IMG/VR virus record: IMGVR_UViG_3300021438_000001
Span: 39,453-103,452 of that record
DNA length: 64,000 nucleotides
Reading direction: 5' to 3' (one strand)
From: a virus
Taxonomy: Duplodnaviria > Heunggongvirae > Uroviricota > Caudoviricetes
Shown piece after piece: positions 4,311 to 50,242 of the stretch. Below the pieces are notes generated by a model. The model searched no databases. It was not told where the DNA came from and was given only the letters and a program-made list of their open reading frames with translations. The first letter of the stretch is position 1. Each line of letters opens with the position of its first letter. Both the position numbers and the translations under genes were made by a program.

Positions 4311-7300
4311 ACTTGAATCACATGATGGCAGCGAGGTCTGACTTCAGCATTGGCGAATCAATGCTCCAGATCGAACACCTCGTTGCCGACGCAAAGGAGA
4401 AGGGCTATGAGTCCATCACGCTGATGGATACAATGTCACTGCACGGCATGGTGGACTTCACCAACCGCTGCAAGAAAGCAGGCATCAAGCCGATTATCGG
4501 CTGCCGCATTCGTGTCTACGAAGACCCCACCTACCGCAAGCCGAGCAAGGCAAGCGGTGAGCGCGAGAAGCCCAACCCGAGCTTTGGACTGAAGGTCTAC
4601 ATCAAGACTGAAGCCGGCGTCCACGCGCTGATGAAGCTGCTGTCCAAAGGCTTCACCAACGAGTACTTCTACTATCACGCCAGGGTAGGGCTGGCAGATG
4701 TGCTGACGCTCGGCGCTGATGATGTGGCGGTTTCGACTGGCGACCTGTTCAGCATCTGGCACCTCGAACCGACAGTCGTCCAGAACACCATTGAACAGCT
4801 TCAGAGCCACTTCGGTGCGGCCAACGTCTTCGCTGAGTTGTCCCCGATCAACACGCCCCTGTTCGACACGCTCAACGCAAAGGCGATCACCGCAGCTCGT
4901 GCGAACGCCATGCCGCTGCTGGTGACTTACCCCACCTTCTACCGCGATGCAGATGCTGCGGATAGCCTTGAGGTGCTGAACTGCATTACCTCGAACACCA
5001 AAATGGAAGCCGCCTGGCGCCCCATTCAATTCGTCAAAGACTTCTACATTCACGAGCCGAACAAGCTGGTGGAGCGCATCAAGGGCGCAAGCAAGCGGCT
5101 CGCTGAGTTCTCCGCCACCGCAGATGCAAAGGCGTGGGTTGAAGGGCTGTCCAATGTCGAGAAGCTGGTTGAAGACTGCTCGTTCCAGTTTGCCAAGCTG
5201 CCGGTGTCGCTGCCCAAGATGGCCGACAACGAGTTCTTGGCGCTCGGTAAGAAGTGCATCGAGGGCTGGAAGCGCCGCTTCGAGAACCCCGTTCTCGGTC
5301 ACAAGCCCAATGCGGCTGAACTGAAGGTCTACCAAGAGCGGCTGAACTACGAGCTTGGCGTTCTTAAGAAGATGGGCTTCGCAGGCTACTTCTTGCTCGT
5401 GGAAGACCTCGTGATGTGGGCAAAGAAGAACAACATCATCGTTGGCCCAGGTCGTGGTTCGGTGGGTGGTTCGCTGGTCGCCTACCTGATCGGCATCACA
5501 GACGTTGACCCCATCCGATTCGACCTCCTGTTCGAGCGTTTTATCAACCCCGAACGTCTTGACTTGCCAGATGCTGACTTGGACTTCATGTCTTCGAAGC
5601 GCCATCTGGTGATCGAGTACTTGACGGCAAAGTACGGTCTGGATCGCGTTGCAGGCATTTCGAACTACTCGACGCTTGCGAGTGCCTCCGCGCTGCGTGA
5701 CAGTGGTCGCATGTACGGTCTGAATGGCATCGAGCTGACCGCTACCAAACTTGTCCCCAAAGAACACGGTCAATCGTTTTCACTGACCGATGCAGCGAAG
5801 GCTGTACCTGAGATCGACCTGTTCAGGAACGAACATCCGGAAATCTGGAAGCATGCCTTGAACCTCGAAGGGGCAATGCGAGCGTTCGGTCGCCACGCCG
5901 CTGGCGTGGTCGTCGCTGGTGAGCCGCTGGTCAACCGTGCCGTCGTGGAGACGCGAGGGGATGACGCATCGCCAATCGTGTCTTGGGACAAGCGAGTGGT
6001 TGAAGACTGGGGCTTGGTCAAGATGGATATTCTGGGCCTCTCCACGCTCGACGTGCTGGAGATCGCCCGTCAGTACATCAACGACCGTCACGGCGTTGCC
6101 ATTGACTACATGCAACTGCCGCTTGAAGAGACGGACATTATGGAAGCCTTCGGTCGTGGTGACACAACCGGCGTCTTCCAGTTCGAATCGCCAGGCATGA
6201 AGAAGCTGCTCCGTGACCTTGCTGTCGGCGGTACGCTGACCTTCGAGGACATTACCGCTGCGACTGCTCTGTATCGTCCAGGCCCGATGGACTCAGGTCT
6301 GATGGACGACTACGTTGCGATCAAGCAAGGGGTGAAGTCGCCGTACTACGACCACCCCAACATGGAACCCGCGCTTCGCTCCACCAACGGCGTGATCGTC
6401 TATCAGGAGCAGGTGATGCAGGTGGCGGTCGATCTTGCTGGCTTCACTCGCGCAGAAGCCGACCATCTGCGTAAAGCGATGGGCAAGAAAGACAAAGACA
6501 AGATGGCGGAAATGCGCCAGAAGTGGATCGACGGCTGTCTCGCCACGTCCGGACTCGATGACCGCACCGCCGGCAACATCTTCGATAAGATCGAAGCCTT
6601 CGCAGGTTACGGTTTCAACAGAAGCCACGCCGTTGAGTATTCCATCATCAGCTACTGGACGATGTGGGTGCGAGTGCGCTACCCCGCCGAGTACTTCGCC
6701 GCCTGTATGTCGATTGTGGACGAAGAGAAGCTGCCAGGGCTGGTGTCGGACGCTCGGGAGTACAAGATTCAGGTGATGCCACCTGATCTGAACACGTCCT
6801 CGCATCGGTACACCATCCCAGACGACAAGACCATCTTGGCACCGTTCTCTGCGGTCAAGGGCATCAGCGAGAACACCGCCTTGCGTATCGTTGAACTGCG
6901 AGAGCGCAACCGCACTTGGAAGCTGGAGCGCGTGAAGAAGAAGCGTGACGGCACGACGGAGAACATCTACGAGCTGGATGAGACTTCGCCGGTCAAGGGG
7001 CGCTTCGACTCGCCTGATGAGTTCGTGATGGCTGCCGCGCAGCCAGGCTCGAAGGTGAACAGCAAGGTGGTGGAGAACCTGCGTCTCGTGGGTGCGTTTG
7101 CAGCCATTGACCCCGCAGAGCTGTCACCGCTGCACTTCAGCCGCCGCAAAGCCCAGATGGAGCTTCTGCCTGGACTGATCATTGACGATGTGAAGGCTGA
7201 CCGCACGACCGATCTGAGCGCCGGCTTCGTCCGCACCAAGATCATCGAGGTGGTTCAGGACTACAAGAAGTGCAGTGGCTGCACTCTGGCTGGCGAACCA

Positions 7301-37380: not shown

Positions 37381-37837
37381 GGCGGCGGAGTACGGCAGCT
37401 AGGCTGAATAGTGACGTAGGCTTTTAATTCACTTTGCTATTCATCTTGGAGGCGGGGATTACCCGCCTTTCCAGTATCCATGCGGGTTCCAAGGCGGTTG
37501 CCTCGGCAAATTTATTATTCATGTTTCCATTCATGTCGCCTGTGGAACGCGTTGACTCTCCTGCCGGCGGCGACTATTCGCGCACACGCGCACGTATATT
37601 TAATTAGTTCCTACTGGCTAATGTCTCCTGTTGGATCGCCTGTGGTTTCGCTTGTTTGTCCTGTATCGGCGCATCACAATTCAAATATCGCAAAACGGTA
37701 TGACAATTTGATCAGCGAAGGCAATCTGAAAAGTCCCCAAGCAAAATGCTTGTAACTCCATGATTCGCTCGATACAGTTCAAATATCGCAAATGCGATGC
37801 CGTTCCACACTGTTCAATTTTTCAAGGAGTATTTTCC

Positions 37838-39278: not shown

Positions 39279-39571
39279 ATGTCCTCGGCATAAGGGGTCG
39301 AATTGTGCCTCTTAACCCCTGAAACGCATCATAAAACGCGCATTACAACCCTTTAGGCATCATTTATGAGACGCGCTAGAACACGTTGGCCTTCGATTTC
39401 CACAGTGAGGTGCTACCTCGGTATCAACCGCACTGGAGGCGCGCTCTAATCGCTTCGACGCCGAAGGGTGTTGGCGAGATGAGTGGGGACGTGTGTGGGG
39501 CGGCTCAATGTCCTGGGGTCAGCGTTTACAGTTCAACTATCGAAGCAAGACAAGAAAGGAGCGACGATGAA

Positions 39572-45784: not shown

Positions 45785-46198
45785 ATGCAAATCATCAACG
45801 GAGTCGAATGCCGAACACGCGAAGAAAGCCTGCGACACATCGCTCAACAGGCAAAGCTGAAAAAGGTCGGCCCTAAAACCGAACGCGAAGCCTGCGGATG
45901 CGAGTATCAATACCCGTCAGGCAATAATTGCGCGGTAGGCTCGCTATTCAACAAAGCCCAACTGAAGACGATCAAGAAGGCCGGCCTCAACGAAATGGCC
46001 ATCGACTATGTGGCGAGAGATTATGTAGGCCAGAAGAACATCGAAACAGTCACAGGTATGGAGATGAAGGAGCTGAAAAAGCTCCAAGAACTTCATGACG
46101 GAGTTGTCCAAGATCGGTCGCCTCAAGCAGCTCGTGATGCGCTCATCCGGTACTGCGAAACGGAGCTTGAAAAGCTCCAAAAAGGTGTAAGCCAATAG
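45785..46198 (+). CDS. hypothetical protein
   Basis: AAAGGAG RBS; last gene of the + block; followed by two hairpins. Confidence 0.5.
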   Translation: MQIINGVECRTREESLRHIAQQAKLKKVGPKTEREACGCEYQYPSGNNCAVGSLFNKAQLKTIKKAGLNEMAIDYVARDYVGQKNIETVTGMEMKELKKLQELHDGVVQDRSPQAARDALIRYCETELEKLQKGVSQ

Positions 46199-46204
46199 TG
46201 CTCA

Positions 46205-46266
46205 TTTAGGGGCTGAAAAACAGCCTCAAAAACGCACCGAAACCCTGCGAAAAGCAGGGTTCTAAA
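46205..46266 (+). terminator. tandem terminator hairpins
   Basis: GGCTGaaaaaCAGCC and CCCTGCgaaaaGCAGGG followed by TTCT. Confidence 0.5.
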
Positions 46267-46369
46267 CCATTACATTAACTCCAAGGCGTAAGTCCCCGTC
46301 AGCATTGAAGAAAACGCCATTTCACGTCATGACATTTGGACACAGATGTAGTATGAGTATTGTCAGGAA

Positions 46370-47230
46370 ATGACTGTTTTTCGATGCAACAAACGACAAG
46401 CAAAAACATACCTTGGCCAGACCTCAAAACGACCGCTAAAACGAAGCCAAAAAGCAATCAATATCACCGACCTCAGACAAGCAGGAAAAGAGCTTAAAAA
46501 CGATTCTATAAGGTCGGCCTGTAAGCGCGAACCTCAAGGCCAGAACCCTAAGCAACCAGACGCAGGCCACCGAAACCTAAAGCTACCGGAGCAGGCCAGG
46601 AACCGGAACCTAGAACTCCCAAAATCCCCGCGACAATTCAATCTATAAGCCTAAGAACAATACATAAGTAATTAACGCCAGAGAAGAAATCCCCAAAGCC
46701 CCAAAGCTCGGTCCCGAACAGAATCAGGAACCGGCACGGAGTACGGCAGCAAGGCTGAATAGAGCTTCATGGCACCGAGCAACCCAGACGACCAAAAGCT
46801 GCAAGGCATAGGAAACGCTCAAAGCCGAACTCCTAAGGAACCAGAGTCAAAACCCAATCAAGAAACGCTAAGGAATAAACCAAAGCGAATCCAGCCCCAA
46901 AAGCAACATCGGCAACCAGAACAGCTATAGGAAAACACCAAACGCAACCAGACCGGAATCAGGCAACAGCTACAGGAAAAACAATCTCGTCACACAACAG
47001 GAGAACAACGACACGGAACCGGACAACGACCACAAAGCGCATAGACACAAGGAACAGGAAGATCAATCACACATAGGGAATGAATTAAGAGAGGATCAAG
47101 AAACATAGATAGGAGAGAACAATGAATGAACGGAAAACGCACCAAAGATGCACCAAATAGGGGTGAAGTAATCCCTCGACGAAAAACGCTTCGAAATGCC
47201 AAACCTTACACATAAAAAATTCGCCCGCGA
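46370..47230 (+). other. A+C-rich, T-depleted non-coding tract with GGAACC(G/A)G-like periodic motifs
   Basis: Read directly: long runs such as caaccagaacagctataggaaaacaccaaacgcaaccagaccggaatcaggcaacagctacagg; no credible ORF. Confidence 0.5.
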
Positions 47231-47584
47231 ATCGCCTAGGCATCCCACAACGCCTAGGAACCATGCGGGTTTGCGGGGCAGGGTACGGCTCCAAGGCTGA
47301 GTACGGCCGACCGGCTGAATAACGTCCTAGGAGGTTGAGATACGGCTCCAAGGCTGAATGTTGGACGTTGGCGGTATAAGAGTGCATCGCCCTATGTATA
47401 AGTTCCCCTATAAGCTCCTAGGCATCCCTAGGCGTCGCCCTATAAGAGTCCCTATAAGGTTTTGGCGTTCGCCCTATAAGGTTAGGCAACTTGCATGGAG
47501 ACTTTGTATAAGGTTGATTAGGAACGATCTTTTTCGCTTACAGTAAAAGCACTGAGATTTTTCAGTTCAACGAAAGACGTTCCT

Positions 47585-47854
47585 ATGAACATACTCGACG
47601 CCTGCAACCTAACCGACGAAGAAGCAGACACCGCTGTCCTACTCGTCAACACCTTCGGTCACTGCGTACAGGAAGCGAACGAAGAAAACATTTATTACTT
47701 CACACCAGACTTCATGTTGGAAACCATCGCAAATGCGTTGGCCGCACAACACGCTGCAAAGAACCTTCGACCTGAGTTCTACCGACGAACCGCAAACCTC
47801 CAAGTCAAGCTGCTACGTCATCAGGCCGATTGGGGAAAGCTCAAATCCGCCTAA
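47585..47854 (+). CDS. hypothetical protein
   Basis: The only clean ORF in the gene-poor region; CTTGCAtggagacTTTGTATAAGG promoter-like motif ~90 nt upstream. Confidence 0.35.
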   Translation: MNILDACNLTDEEADTAVLLVNTFGHCVQEANEENIYYFTPDFMLETIANALAAQHAAKNLRPEFYRRTANLQVKLLRHQADWGKLKSA

Positions 47855-48080
47855 GACCATGAACCGAGCAGGCCACGCTCGGTTTTTCGTATCCAAACAC
47901 TCCCTAGGCATCCCTAGGCCAGACATGACCTTCACGCCTAGGCCGTAAGCATCGGTTCCTAGGCCGTAAAGCTTCGTCATCAGGCCATCTCATTGGAGAC
48001 TTGCCAGGCCACATGAAAAACAATCAAAAGTCGTGTTACATTGCAATCACTCGATTTTGAGTGATCAAAGAAAGCGTACT

Positions 48081-48332
48081 ATGAACTTCCGCCAATCAAC
48101 CTTCGTCTACACCATAGCAACAACCATCATTGGATTCGTTCTCGCAGCGTTGTGTGCGTTCGCACTCAGCTCGGAGACTGGTGGTGGTTACTTGCACATC
48201 TTCGGATTGTTCTTCTCAGGTGGACTGGTCATCGGTTCCTGGGTAAATGCTTTGCACGTTCTCGGTATGAGTGACTTCGCCGAAACCGACGAGTTCGGCA
48301 TGACGTACCCCAAAGTCGGTGAAACCGCATAA
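48081..48332 (+). CDS. small membrane protein
   Basis: 3 TM segments. Confidence 0.4.
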   Translation: MNFRQSTFVYTIATTIIGFVLAALCAFALSSETGGGYLHIFGLFFSGGLVIGSWVNALHVLGMSDFAETDEFGMTYPKVGETA

Positions 48333-48357
48333 GTCATCAATGACATAGGAGAACATC

Positions 48358-48546
48358 ATGAGCATGATTCAACCAGCACAACCAACCCCAACGAACCGCA
48401 TTCCTGAAGACAAGCGATTCGACTTCGCTGACACCTTCGAGGATCAGGAAGCGTACTACGACGAGATGCAGGAAGAGGTTGAGCTTCACATGCTTCGTCA
48501 GGGGCACGGAGTTCGGCGATCTCCCCGTCTGTACGACGAACGATGA
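48358..48546 (+). CDS. hypothetical small acidic protein
   Basis: TAGGAGAAC RBS after an ATAAGTCAtcaaTGACA box. Confidence 0.4.
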   Translation: MSMIQPAQPTPTNRIPEDKRFDFADTFEDQEAYYDEMQEEVELHMLRQGHGVRRSPRLYDER

Positions 48547-48821
48547 TCGAAGACAGCAGGGTGTGAGGAGAACTCACACCCTTTGTTCGTTGAAGACGCT
48601 GCCTAGGGATGCCTAGGAGTACGGCAAGACGGCTGAACAGAACCGCCTAGGAAGAGTGATCGACAGCCTCGGAGTACGGCTGGACGGCTGAATGAAATCG
48701 CCTAGGAGTACGGCTGGGTGGCTGAGTAGAGCAGCGTAGGAGGTCGGGGAGGTCAGGGCGGTCGGTGACGTTGGAGTCGCCGAAACGCGGATGAGAATCG
48801 TCCTCATCCAACTCTCCTATA

Positions 48822-48950
48822 AGACCCAAGACCAGTCTCCTAGGAGAGTAGTCTCCTATAAGACATAAGAGAAGTCTCCTAGGAGAGTAGTCTCCTGTCT
48901 CCTAGGAGAGTAGTCTCCTGTCTCCTATAAGACTTGATTGCCTGCCCGTG
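48822..48950 (+). repeat. iteron-like cluster: 3x palindrome TCTCCTAGGAGAGTAG interleaved with 3x TCTCCTATAAGAC
   Basis: Direct reading of 48,822-48,950; adjacent to an AT-rich stretch. Confidence 0.6.
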
Positions 48951-48984
48951 CGTTTACCATACAATCAAAACCCCTGCAAGCATT

Positions 48985-49035
48985 TGACGATTGAAAAAAT
49001 CAATCAGCACGATTGAAAAAATCAATCACAAAATG
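48985..49035 (+). promoter_or_regulatory. tandem palindromic operator-like sites GATTGAAAAAATCAATC (x2)
   Basis: Two identical 17-bp palindromes 20 bp apart in the AT-rich leader of the 49120 gene. Confidence 0.5.
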
Positions 49036-49119
49036 ATTGTTTTCTGGTTTGATTGTGTTATAGTTCAGTCATCGGTTGATTTTGACCGATACAACAAACC
49101 AACTTTTAAGAGGTACAAC

Positions 49120-49761
49120 ATGAGCAAAGCAAACGCAAACACTAGCAAAGCGAAGCAAGGTAAAAACGCAGTAGCAGCAAAGACCGACTATCAAGCGTTG
49201 ATCTTAGCAGCTATTCAAAAGCGAATCGACAATGCGGACAATGACAATCAACGCGACACGCTGCAAGCTGAATACAAGTTTTTCAATGACGCAAACGGTG
49301 CAGCTATTCTAAGCAAGTGCAGCGAAATTCAAGGTTTGAACCTTGCAGCATTGGTGCAACAAATTGCAGTTCTCAAGACAGAATCAAAGAGTGATTTTCT
49401 CGCAGTGTATGCACTGCAAAAGGTACGCAAAGCACTGTATGCACTCGCAAACAATGCGCGTTCATCGTTTGATGGTTATTCTAACTCTATCATGTTCAAT
49501 CTGGTGAAGCTGCAAACGGTGAACACCAAAGAGACGCGCATGAGCATTTGCAAAGCTATCGAATATAGCGAAACCGAACAAGTGCAAGCACTCAAACGCT
49601 TGCACAATTGCAGCGAATCGACCGCAAGCACTCAAGCAAGTAGCACGCGAATGATGCTCAAAGCGTTGAACCTTGCAAACGTGATCAAGTCAAAAAACAA
49701 TGACGCTATCACGCTTCAAGACAATGACGCAGCGCGCATGATTGTGACAATGTACGCTTAA
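49120..49761 (+). CDS. hypothetical protein encoded in a low-GC island (Ala/Asn/Lys-rich, alpha-helical)
   Basis: RBS AAGAGG; base composition markedly AT-richer than the rest of the window. Confidence 0.45.
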   Translation: MSKANANTSKAKQGKNAVAAKTDYQALILAAIQKRIDNADNDNQRDTLQAEYKFFNDANGAAILSKCSEIQGLNLAALVQQIAVLKTESKSDFLAVYALQKVRKALYALANNARSSFDGYSNSIMFNLVKLQTVNTKETRMSICKAIEYSETEQVQALKRLHNCSESTASTQASSTRMMLKALNLANVIKSKNNDAITLQDNDAARMIVTMYA

Positions 49762-50242
49762 CAGTGAAACCGATAGAGCGTGACACAATCACGCTCTATC
49801 AATGAAACCTATTGGAGATTGATAATGATTGATTTTATTGATTGTGCAGTAATTGCAATCGGTGCAGTGTACGTGATAGCGTGTCTCTATCGACCAGATG
49901 TGATGCTGTAATGTGAAAAAGAATACCGAAGTCCTAGAGATTTTCGGTTGCCTAGGAGGCGACCCCTTCCTCGTTCCGACCTCTCCCGAGCGCCCCTTAT
50001 ACAGCCAGGCAGACCCCTGAGATCACATCCTTATACAGCCGGCACACATAATGTAAAACGTACTTTGCAAAAGCGCCCCCAAGTGACAAATACGCTTTAC
50101 GTTAGTTCAGAATCCGTAAGACCGAGCGGAAAATGACCCGATGGGGACATTTCAGGCCCAAATCCCCACGTTCGCACCGAAAATGACCCGATGAGGACAT
50201 TTGCTTATCCTTATACAAGCAAAAAATTTCGAGGCGAGTGGG

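Follow-up and report, generated by a model that had tools for sequence, protein, structure and literature searches.

A conserved A-rich, T-poor non-coding tract with little capacity to fold in the early control region of ~105 kb siphophages: a candidate transcription-activated unwinding arm

Several groups of non-coding elements invite comparison with the locus described here, a strand-asymmetric tract of about 0.9 kb at positions 46370-47230 of a 64,000-nucleotide (nt) stretch of viral DNA (Caudoviricetes; IMG/VR record IMGVR_UViG_3300021438_000001, positions 39,453 to 103,452), which is referred to as the window throughout. In iteron-type origins, such as lambda ori and those of plasmids, direct repeats in helical phase adjoin a low-GC segment of ~40-100 bp. 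In lambda ori, which lies within the initiator gene and requires transcriptional activation, the A/T-rich segment is itself strand-asymmetric. CsrB, RsmY, RsmZ and CrcZ are non-coding RNAs of 100-400 nt with many short single-stranded motifs, the number of which varies between relatives; the motif is GGA in hairpin loops in RNAs of the CsrB type and AANAANAA in CrcZ. The rut sites of Rho, of ~80 nt, lie in untranslated, unstructured RNA with more C than G, and use UC as well as CC dimers. The injection-stop region (iss) of T5, a phage of the ~105-120 kb class, is a large conserved untranslated region beside early genes with direct and inverted repeats, palindromes and pairs of DnaA boxes within inverted repeats; it is located in the terminal repeat, immediately to the left of the stop of first-step transfer. 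The T4 origins oriF and oriG, finally, consist of a promoter and a downstream unwinding element, are primed by an R-loop that is reversed by UvsW, and accept heterologous unwinding elements in place of their own (PMC3016281).

The tract would resemble oriF and oriG in that a regulated promoter (predicted here) would read into a non-coding element in which composition outweighs sequence; moreover, a UvsW-type helicase is encoded and the displaced strand would be the loading site. The T4 element, however, is ~50-100 bp long and simply A+T-rich, whereas the tract and its relatives measure 0.45-0.9 kb, have a GC content of 46-50% and are strand-asymmetric. By GC and length it does not fit an easily unwound element of the T4 type, and it is flanked by iteron arrays, which T4 origins lack. 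As at iteron-type origins, phased direct repeats stand beside it (47407-47515, with a spacing of 12-34 nt; exactly 11 nt at 6440-6480 of the related locus L005), together with an inverted copy at its 3' end. Family searches identified no initiator gene beside these iterons, and in its length the tract is unlike the A/T segments of lambda and plasmids, as it is unlike lambda ori in its location outside such a gene. To our knowledge, almost all recognised phage non-coding elements were found by their conserved structure or sequence. The distinguishing property of the tract is that composition and non-structure, rather than a fold, are conserved, so that it escapes standard searches for RNA families. 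No annotated feature in cultured relatives, no Rfam family and no paper describing such a tract was found.

The base fractions of the + strand at 46370-47230 are A 0.415, C 0.268, G 0.203 and T 0.114, as against A 0.248, C 0.275, G 0.278 and T 0.199 in the whole window. In the 64 kb no 800-nt interval has more A than the one starting at 46386 (0.42, more than 5 standard deviations over the mean), and none has less T (0.10). AT skew in the tract reaches 0.56-0.70; judged by skew its limits are ~46339-47278, and GC along it is 0.46-0.53. The initial annotation, which was made from the letters alone, had described the region as A+C-rich and almost devoid of T in a phage of 58% GC. The excess of A and the deficit of T are borne out, as is the view that such asymmetry is unusual for the genome; it is extreme within the 64 kb and also conserved in relatives. 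C, however, is average and G is low, T at 11% is scarce rather than absent, and the GC of the window is 55%. Two independent assemblies show 0 differences across 6.4 kb and 4.3 kb, and the tract is therefore not an assembly artefact. Its length is constant among near-identical strains. After the tract, T is scarcest at 1-800 of the window (0.133), a stretch that has a purine content of 0.80 at 85-223 and overlaps listed open reading frames (ORFs).

Related loci, labelled L001, L003, L005 and so on, were gathered from IMG/VR and from JGI/ENA metagenomes by means of the gene immediately upstream (45785-46198), and belong to uncultured phages of ~105 kb. In 11 distinct relatives, whose flanking protein is ~45-99% identical to that of the window, an A-rich, T-poor tract of 430-650 nt (A 0.37-0.47, T 0.08-0.15) lies directly 3' of the homologous gene. 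The tract of the window is the longest of the set and contains local duplications of A+C-rich units. The order of parts is fixed across the aligned relatives: a terminator, an operator-like box, a 5' module, the core, a 3' module, an inverted iteron and repeat arrays (Table 1). The length of the core ranges from 220 to 680 nt among the phages, while its composition is maintained, A+C-rich first and A+G-rich second. In sliding windows the identity of the 5' module between distant pairs is 0.74-0.78, which equals or exceeds that of the flanking genes; for the core it is 0.6-0.7. An apparent case of a tract more conserved than the flanking gene, in L005 against L018, proved on sliding-window comparison to be an artefact of mosaic divergence. 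In L024 and L012 the flanking gene stands in unrelated contexts and without a tract. The tract lies 4 to 40 kb from the ends of long contigs, and contig breakpoints are at differing positions. Neither a DNA search of cultured phages and plasmids with the tract and its surrounding 6-15 kb nor tblastn with the flanking proteins returned a match; a scan of genome contigs found nothing, and a scan of IMG/VR for the pattern of block B, the end of the 5' module, gave only chance matches apart from the known loci. We conclude with high confidence that the tract is an ancient and integral part of the early control region in a clade of ~105 kb siphophages and, given its extreme and conserved asymmetry, it is very probably functional.

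That the layout is older than the uncultured clade is indicated by miniature versions of it in cultured phages. The helicase places the phage near siphophages of ~105-117 kb, namely RHEph10 (Rhizobium), BUCTxx99 and ANB28 (Stenotrophomonas) and JGB6 (Xanthomonas), and also near SSU5-like elements. BUCTxx99 has an unannotated gap at the syntenic position, which contains, in order, a terminator hairpin, the perfect palindrome GTTCCACGTGGAAC, a hairpin, GGTATAAAG and a tract of ~170-250 nt that is rich in A and C and poor in T (A 0.45-0.46, C 0.27-0.29, G 0.13, T 0.13-0.14) and folds at only -0.068 kcal/mol/nt. After it come the genome's only CCTATAAGG, an TATATAAT promoter-like element and then a gene. 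The region of ANB28 is 87% identical to that of BUCTxx99 by BLAST, with a mean column identity of 91% in the pairwise alignment; the similarity begins exactly at the terminator, and the end of the upstream gene is unrelated. In both Stenotrophomonas phages the composition of the tract is kept without sequence that can be aligned to the window. A 50-aa ORF annotated on the - strand inside the ANB28 analogue is probably spurious.

We also conclude with high confidence that the tract is non-coding. Its longest ORF (92 aa, 46370..46648), which had been regarded as probably not coding, has no counterpart conserved in relatives, no conserved reading frame was found in the tracts of the 11 relatives, none of which encodes an intact protein here, and gene callers leave a gap of 1.39 kb empty. 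Close pairs of relatives differ within the tract by indels of 1 and 2 nt, and its substitutions lack the third-position excess that the flanking gene shows. It had also been suggested that the region might be a degenerated gene. In favour of a remnant of a decayed protein-coding gene one could cite the stop-free frames of up to 141 codons in several relatives and the number of stops, which is below expectation (z = -2 to -3). These open frames follow from the scarcity of T, however, and they fall in all three frames, with none common to the relatives. As the indels and the substitutions without codon phase are joined by the lack of significant 3-nt or 10-11-nt periodicity in a Fourier analysis of the window tract, and by the ORF-less state of relatives as far apart as those compared, such a remnant is extremely improbable. 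A metagenome annotation (L081) places a 100-aa ORF on the - strand at window 47085-47387, over the 3' end of the tract and the repeat array; it is almost certainly spurious.

The RNA corresponding to the + strand would be unusually unstructured, contrary to the structured non-coding RNA that had been considered in the initial annotation. The + strand RNA of 46370-47200 folds at -0.159 kcal/mol/nt, as compared with -0.33 to -0.40 kcal/mol/nt for 12 control segments of the same length and strand (z -3.3 to +0.6). Against dinucleotide shuffles the z-score of the tract is +2.4, with none of 100 shuffles as unstructured, and +3.8 in another run; in eight of nine relatives z is at least +0.3, mostly between +0.3 and +2.1. 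RNAalifold found no conserved pairs in the alignment of the 5' module. The + strand cannot fold because U is scarce, which leaves A unpaired, and because G and then C is scarce within each of the two parts. Since folding is worse than in dinucleotide shuffles, selection has acted beyond composition. When strand asymmetry is maintained across 0.2-0.9 kb and folding is selected against, a role played as a single strand is indicated, either by RNA or by DNA displaced by RNA.

Within this unstructured sequence some short motifs are over-represented. The loose repeats remarked upon earlier can be described as GSAACCRG, of which seven copies, all on the + strand, lie at 46552-47022 with a spacing of 32-128 nt; only four others occur in the rest of the window. 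When k-mers of 10 pooled tracts were compared with dinucleotide shuffles, GAAC (108 observed, 54 expected), GAACC (39 against 14), TAGG (37 against 10.7) and TAGGA (21 against 5) were in excess, while AAAA(A) runs and GAC were below expectation. These counts mean that the few T residues stand in particular contexts and that the A residues are interspersed rather than in runs. Given the depletion of GAC (z = -3.5), sites for a T7-type primase, for which an enrichment had been sought, were rejected. TAGG in the tract does not co-vary with the type of operator (CCTAGG or CCATGG) in the phage.

The edges of the tract are those of a discrete unit. Hairpins at 46209-46227 and 46243-46263 agree with the terminators reported earlier after 46198. 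Every relative has, 15-70 nt past the stop codon, a GC-rich hairpin that is followed by a T-rich tail (the copy of L010 is detected by the terminator scan); the stems differ in sequence between phages through compensatory changes while the hairpin itself is retained, as would be expected of a genuine terminator of the upstream operon. The pattern of the box that follows, CCWWGG(N0-3)CGTAA, occurs three times in the window, at 46281 and, upstream of the early gene 48033, at 47937 and 47958. In 9 of 11 aligned relatives the box is kept as CCWWGG or CCACGG, N0-2 and then CGTAAGT or CCTAAGT; L003 and L017 possess the box, but with GTAAAT further downstream. The putative transcription start consists of a -10-like TAGTAT, a hairpin and a T5 run, an arrangement conserved in L001, L014 and L020; other relatives have TATAAG, a hairpin and CCTATAAGG at this place. 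The geometry, with the hairpin 4-7 nt on from the -10-like element, is the same as at three neighbouring early genes. Because the tract has the orientation of all flanking genes and comes after a real terminator and an operator of the early-gene type, it is probably transcribed as its own early untranslated unit.

Further inside, block B includes the palindrome AAACGCGTTT; block B is separated from CGTAAGT by 195-217 nt in 10 relatives, and the copy of the window is the most diverged. At the aligned position of the TACGGC-type box within the tract, (G)AGTACGG is conserved in relatives. The C/G ratio of the A+C-rich part of relatives is ~1.5-2, and the purine content of the A+G-rich part is up to 0.76 in the window and 0.71-0.83 in relatives. 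The 3' module contains one small hairpin without covariation; a T-rich run follows it in 6 of 10 relatives folded and is missing in the window, L001, L010 and L020. Its spacing from the inverted iteron is a constant 35-37 nt. Palindromes in and around the tract include GGAAGTATTCC besides that of block B, and iteron copies in opposite orientation stand at either side of the tract. Such palindromes, the inverted iteron and the repeat boxes suggest that the DNA, too, is a site of protein assembly.

RNA-DNA hybrid and DNA duplex energies were calculated with the Sugimoto and SantaLucia nearest-neighbour tables. Of all 800-nt intervals on both strands of the 64 kb, the one that most favours the hybrid over the duplex begins within the tract, at 46534, and in L001 and L005 the A+G-rich part is the locus-wide minimum of hybrid energy. 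(The best 300-nt interval of the + strand, and the second among 200-nt intervals, lies at 1-800 of the window.) Together with the adjacent iteron arrays, these energies lend moderate support to the R-loop-prone origin that had been one of the earlier suggestions. We infer, with low confidence, that the tract may be a cis-acting, untranslated and non-folding early unit that would open the DNA through an R-loop beside iteron arrays. Of the readings considered, this one draws on the largest share of the observations. A regulated early promoter just past the upstream terminator, behind the CCWWGG-CGTAA operator common to the neighbouring early genes, would drive transcription into the tract. The transcript, being untranslated, non-folding and poor in U, would be free to re-anneal with the T/C-rich template, and in the purine-rich 3' part the RNA-DNA hybrid exceeds the DNA duplex in calculated stability. 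The R-loop or open complex would expose the equally structure-free displaced strand beside the iteron and palindrome arrays, and the tract would thus serve a replication origin or a control complex as its unwinding arm, activated by transcription. The UvsW-like helicase of the phage may then serve as the remover of the R-loop, in a scheme like that of the T4 origins with their promoter and unwinding element. A core that varies in length but keeps its composition fits the exchangeable unwinding element of T4 (PMC3016281). The replisome that the phage itself encodes, with a DNA polymerase, and its SbcC are likewise in keeping with this reading.

Several points weigh against this unwinding arm. 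Its promoter, transcript, R-loop and origin are all predicted from sequence, and a sigma-70 scan finds no consensus promoter at the start of the tract. The hybrid advantage is modest (about -0.11 versus -0.04 kcal/mol/nt), the C/A-rich 5' half is nearly neutral in hybrid energy, and with a GC content of 46-50% the tract does not melt easily. In length it exceeds the unwinding regions of T4 or lambda 5-10 times. No DnaA boxes (up to 1 mismatch) and no IHF consensus sites occur in 45.5-50.5 kb, and neither a strand switch nor a turn of the GC skew is found at the tract. An untranslated RNA with more C than G should be aborted by the Rho of the host. An R-loop requires neither the unique conserved blocks of the 5' module nor the enriched GAACC and TAGG, all of which would suit a protein-binding RNA at least equally well.

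This last point leads to the main rival, a decoy acting in trans: an abundant early single-stranded RNA with many motifs (GAACC/GSAACCRG, TAGGR and purine-rich runs like Shine-Dalgarno sequences) that would titrate Rho, 30S/S1, Hfq, CsrA or another protein. Such an RNA would have to be structure-free, and the RNA of the tract is; its motifs are repeated, orientation-specific and variable in copy number, it grows by local duplication as sponge RNAs do, and it forms a discrete unit past a terminator with a hairpin at its 5' end. In these respects, above all the repeated GAACC and TAGG and their variation in number, a decoy accounts for the data better than the unwinding arm. It accounts less well for the DNA palindromes, which like the inverted iteron point to binding of DNA, and the signatures of known sponges fail. 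For CsrA, GGA in the window tract is near composition level (21 against 16.5 expected), as are ANGGA (7 against 6.8) and CANGGA, and the values for GGA and ANGGA in relatives are mixed (z -1.2 to 2.4). The tract forms almost no hairpins in which GGA could be displayed. For Hfq, AANAANAA occurs twice in the window tract where 4.8 copies are expected, no nucleotide falls within (AAN)>=4 and none within (ARN)>=5, for which 13 nt are expected; in the pooled relatives (AAN)>=3 and (ARN)>=5 are mildly enriched (z = 3.6 and 3.2), which speaks for a decoy. The sponge of Hfq or CsrA envisaged in the initial annotation thus finds no backing in the motifs of the window, and in this the tract differs from CsrB-type RNAs and CrcZ. 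Rfam searches of the window and nine relatives, which included CsrB, CsrC, RsmY, PrrB_RsmZ and RsmX, gave nothing at the gathering threshold and, at E <= 10, only three chance-level matches (E > 8, far under the gathering score). A 3' terminator is not conserved, as the U-rich tail is missing in four loci, no partner protein is known for GAACC or TAGG, and antisense matches of the tract within the window are no better than those of shuffles. We regard a decoy as rather unlikely, though only a little less probable than the unwinding arm.

If the RNA were untranslated and unstructured with an excess of C, it might alternatively load Rho and act as an insulator or attenuator, either stopping read-through from the upstream operon of replication and nucleotide metabolism or gating its own promoter before the operator and iteron arrays. 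The 5' half has these properties over 300-500 nt in all relatives and the tract directly follows a terminator with a short T tail, but a rut site would leave 0.45-0.9 kb and the whole A+G-rich half unneeded, the tract being ten-fold longer. The conserved unique blocks and the operator between terminator and tract would be unexplained, the avoidance of U is foreign to rut sites, and GC skew of equal size is found elsewhere in the window, so that we consider this explanation unlikely. Still more doubtful is a passive DNA spacer, that is, filler free of promoters, palindromes and restriction sites which sets the distance between protein sites (as in looping between iterons), or low-complexity DNA grown by slippage. 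Strand asymmetry does exclude palindromes and sigma-70 hexamers (GATC, for example, is absent from 46200-47060), the core varies 3-fold in length, iterons in opposite orientation flank the tract and the copy of the window carries local duplications. Filler would not be expected, however, to keep its composition in every relative including the Stenotrophomonas phages that cannot be aligned, to fold worse than its dinucleotide shuffles, to carry a 5' module as conserved as genes, or to be constant in length among near-identical strains. A cis-acting DNA site through which the genome enters the cell or is packaged, comparable to the T5 iss and situated at a physical end of the genome or close to one, is very improbable. 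Both are untranslated regions of 1.2-1.6 kb with repeats and palindromes that are more conserved than the adjacent ORFs (bioRxiv 10.1101/866236), small early genes come after the tract, and several metagenome contigs break inside or near it. These breakpoints, however, differ in position, the distance of the tract from an end of long contigs is anything from 4 to 40 kb, the T5 iss has no A/T strand asymmetry (absolute AT skew < 0.18), and its hallmark, paired DnaA boxes, was not found in the region of the tract.

Should the unwinding arm prove true, it would show how replication begins in siphophages of ~105-110 kb, a widespread group that includes phages of the pathogen Stenotrophomonas maltophilia under test for therapy. 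A decoy RNA would represent a new strategy of host takeover. More broadly, though no more firmly than the unwinding arm itself, the tract may represent a new class of long non-coding phage RNA, made early and defined by a designed inability to fold (A+C, then A+G, with U excluded), which would be a platform serving as a decoy for Rho, 30S/S1 or Hfq-like proteins or as the primer of an R-loop origin, and which would be conserved from uncultured freshwater phages to cultured phages of Stenotrophomonas. Since ANB28 and BUCTxx99 are cultured and carry the miniature version, the question is open to direct experiment.

Table 1. Elements of the tract and its surroundings, with the corresponding regions in cultured phages (window coordinates unless an accession or locus is given)
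Feature	Position	Strand	Sequence or remark
Two hairpins closing the upstream operon	46209..46263	+	GGCTG-AAAAA-CAGCC; CCCTGC-GAAAA-GCAGGG then TTCT
Operator-like box	46281..46293	+	CCAAGG-CGTAAGT; pattern CCWWGG(N0-3)CGTAA
Conserved 5' module	46288..46518	+	Ends in block B, consensus GGAAAnCGCTCAAAACGCGTTTAA..TCGA
Putative transcription start	46349..46381	+	-10-like TAGTAT, hairpin GTCA-GGAAA-TGAC, T5 run
A+C-rich, G- and T-poor part	46385..46990	+	7 GSAACCRG; window-specific duplicated units of 28-29 nt
GGAGTACGGC-N6-GGCTGAATA box within the tract	46737..46762	+	TACGGC-N6-GGCTGA family
A+G-rich part with TAGG(G/A) motifs	46990..47165	+	GC skew turns positive
3' module GGGGTGAAGTAATCCCTCGA	47160..47179	+	Consensus GGGnGAAGTATTCCCTCGA; hairpin or DNA palindrome GGAA-GTA-TTCC
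Inverted iteron copy AAACCTTACAC	47201..47211	+	L003 copy is a perfect AACCTTATAGGG; general form AAACCTTAYAGG
Repeat array	47215..47515	+	CCTAGG x5, TACGGC-N6-GGCTGA x3, CCCTATAAG(G) or TGTATAAGG iterons x6
First small early gene (89 aa)	47533..47854	+	-10-like TTACAGT; 5' untranslated region hairpin with GATTTT loop
TACGGC-N6-GGCTGA(A/G)T copies	37391, 46742, 47284, 47302, 47341, 48620, 48675, 48709	+	
BUCTxx99 analogue (L084)	OR529408.1 19240-19930		Unannotated 690-nt gap, syntenic position
ANB28 analogue	PQ434692.1 1916-2611; L087 1901-2596		

The genes upstream of the tract, on the same strand, encode a DNA polymerase (annotated as Pol III alpha in the homologue of BUCTxx99), SbcC, ribonucleotide reductase, nine tRNAs, thymidylate synthase and RNA ligase, together with many small genes without assigned function. 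Downstream follows a control region of 2.7 kb with several small early genes and then a strand switch, beyond which lie the UvsW-like helicase on the other strand, ParB-like genes, terminase and portal. Homologues of the first small early gene come after the tract in L001 and L005 as well. Sequence searches of NCBIfam and PDB with the neighbouring proteins gave nothing; their matches were confined to PHROGs of unknown function, and none of those beside the iterons scored above the Pfam cut-off.

The 64 kb contain 17 CCTAGG sites, against 4.5 expected in total, and every one of them lies within 47235-49951. The clusters of this motif stand upstream of each small early gene, and relatives carry CCTAGG, CCATGG or, in L027, both. 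The distribution suggests that the site is a palindromic operator, altered in sequence from phage to phage and avoided elsewhere in the genome. The TACGGC-N6-GGCTGA element is present in eight copies in the window, all on the + strand, against 0.06 expected. The copy in the tract is 96% identical to that at 37386-37411, which sits between the end of a gene and a terminator-like hairpin. The iterons before the first small early gene, which can also be written as CCCTATAAGG, have further CCCTATAAG(G) counterparts, on the + strand only, at 48816-48924, and related TGTATAAGG copies are found on the - strand at 49996, 50030 and 50210.

In L003 (7895-8235), and also in L017 and L022, a segment of ~330 nt lies between the tract and the iterons. 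It contains many CCAAGG boxes and no conserved ORF, and its identity between L003 and L017 is 0.81-0.91. As a candidate for a structured RNA it was rejected, having no stable fold (z = 0.7 in L003 and L017).

Hairpins with a GATTTT loop occur in the 5' untranslated regions of three early genes (47551-47566, 48046-48065 and 49071-49090), 3-6 nt past a -10-like TTACAGT, TTACATT or TTATAGT and ahead of a leader of the AAAGAAAG type. In L010 and L027 the head of the tract, too, carries a hairpin of this type, just past CGTAAGT. The palindrome GATTGAAAAAATCAATC is found twice at 48989-49027, in the stretch of lowest GC (0.38), just upstream of a gene for a 213-aa protein (49120-49761; PHROG 9272, no known function). 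Where the strands converge, a hydrophobic ORF of 28 aa (MIDFIDCAVIAIGAVYVIACLYRPDVML, 49825-49911) with the ribosome-binding site GGAG lies between two terminator-like hairpins; as judged from its predicted product it could be a small membrane peptide or toxin. The convergent intergenic region also contains two direct repeats of GAAAATGACCCGATGRGGACATTT, at ~50128-50152 and ~50178-50203.

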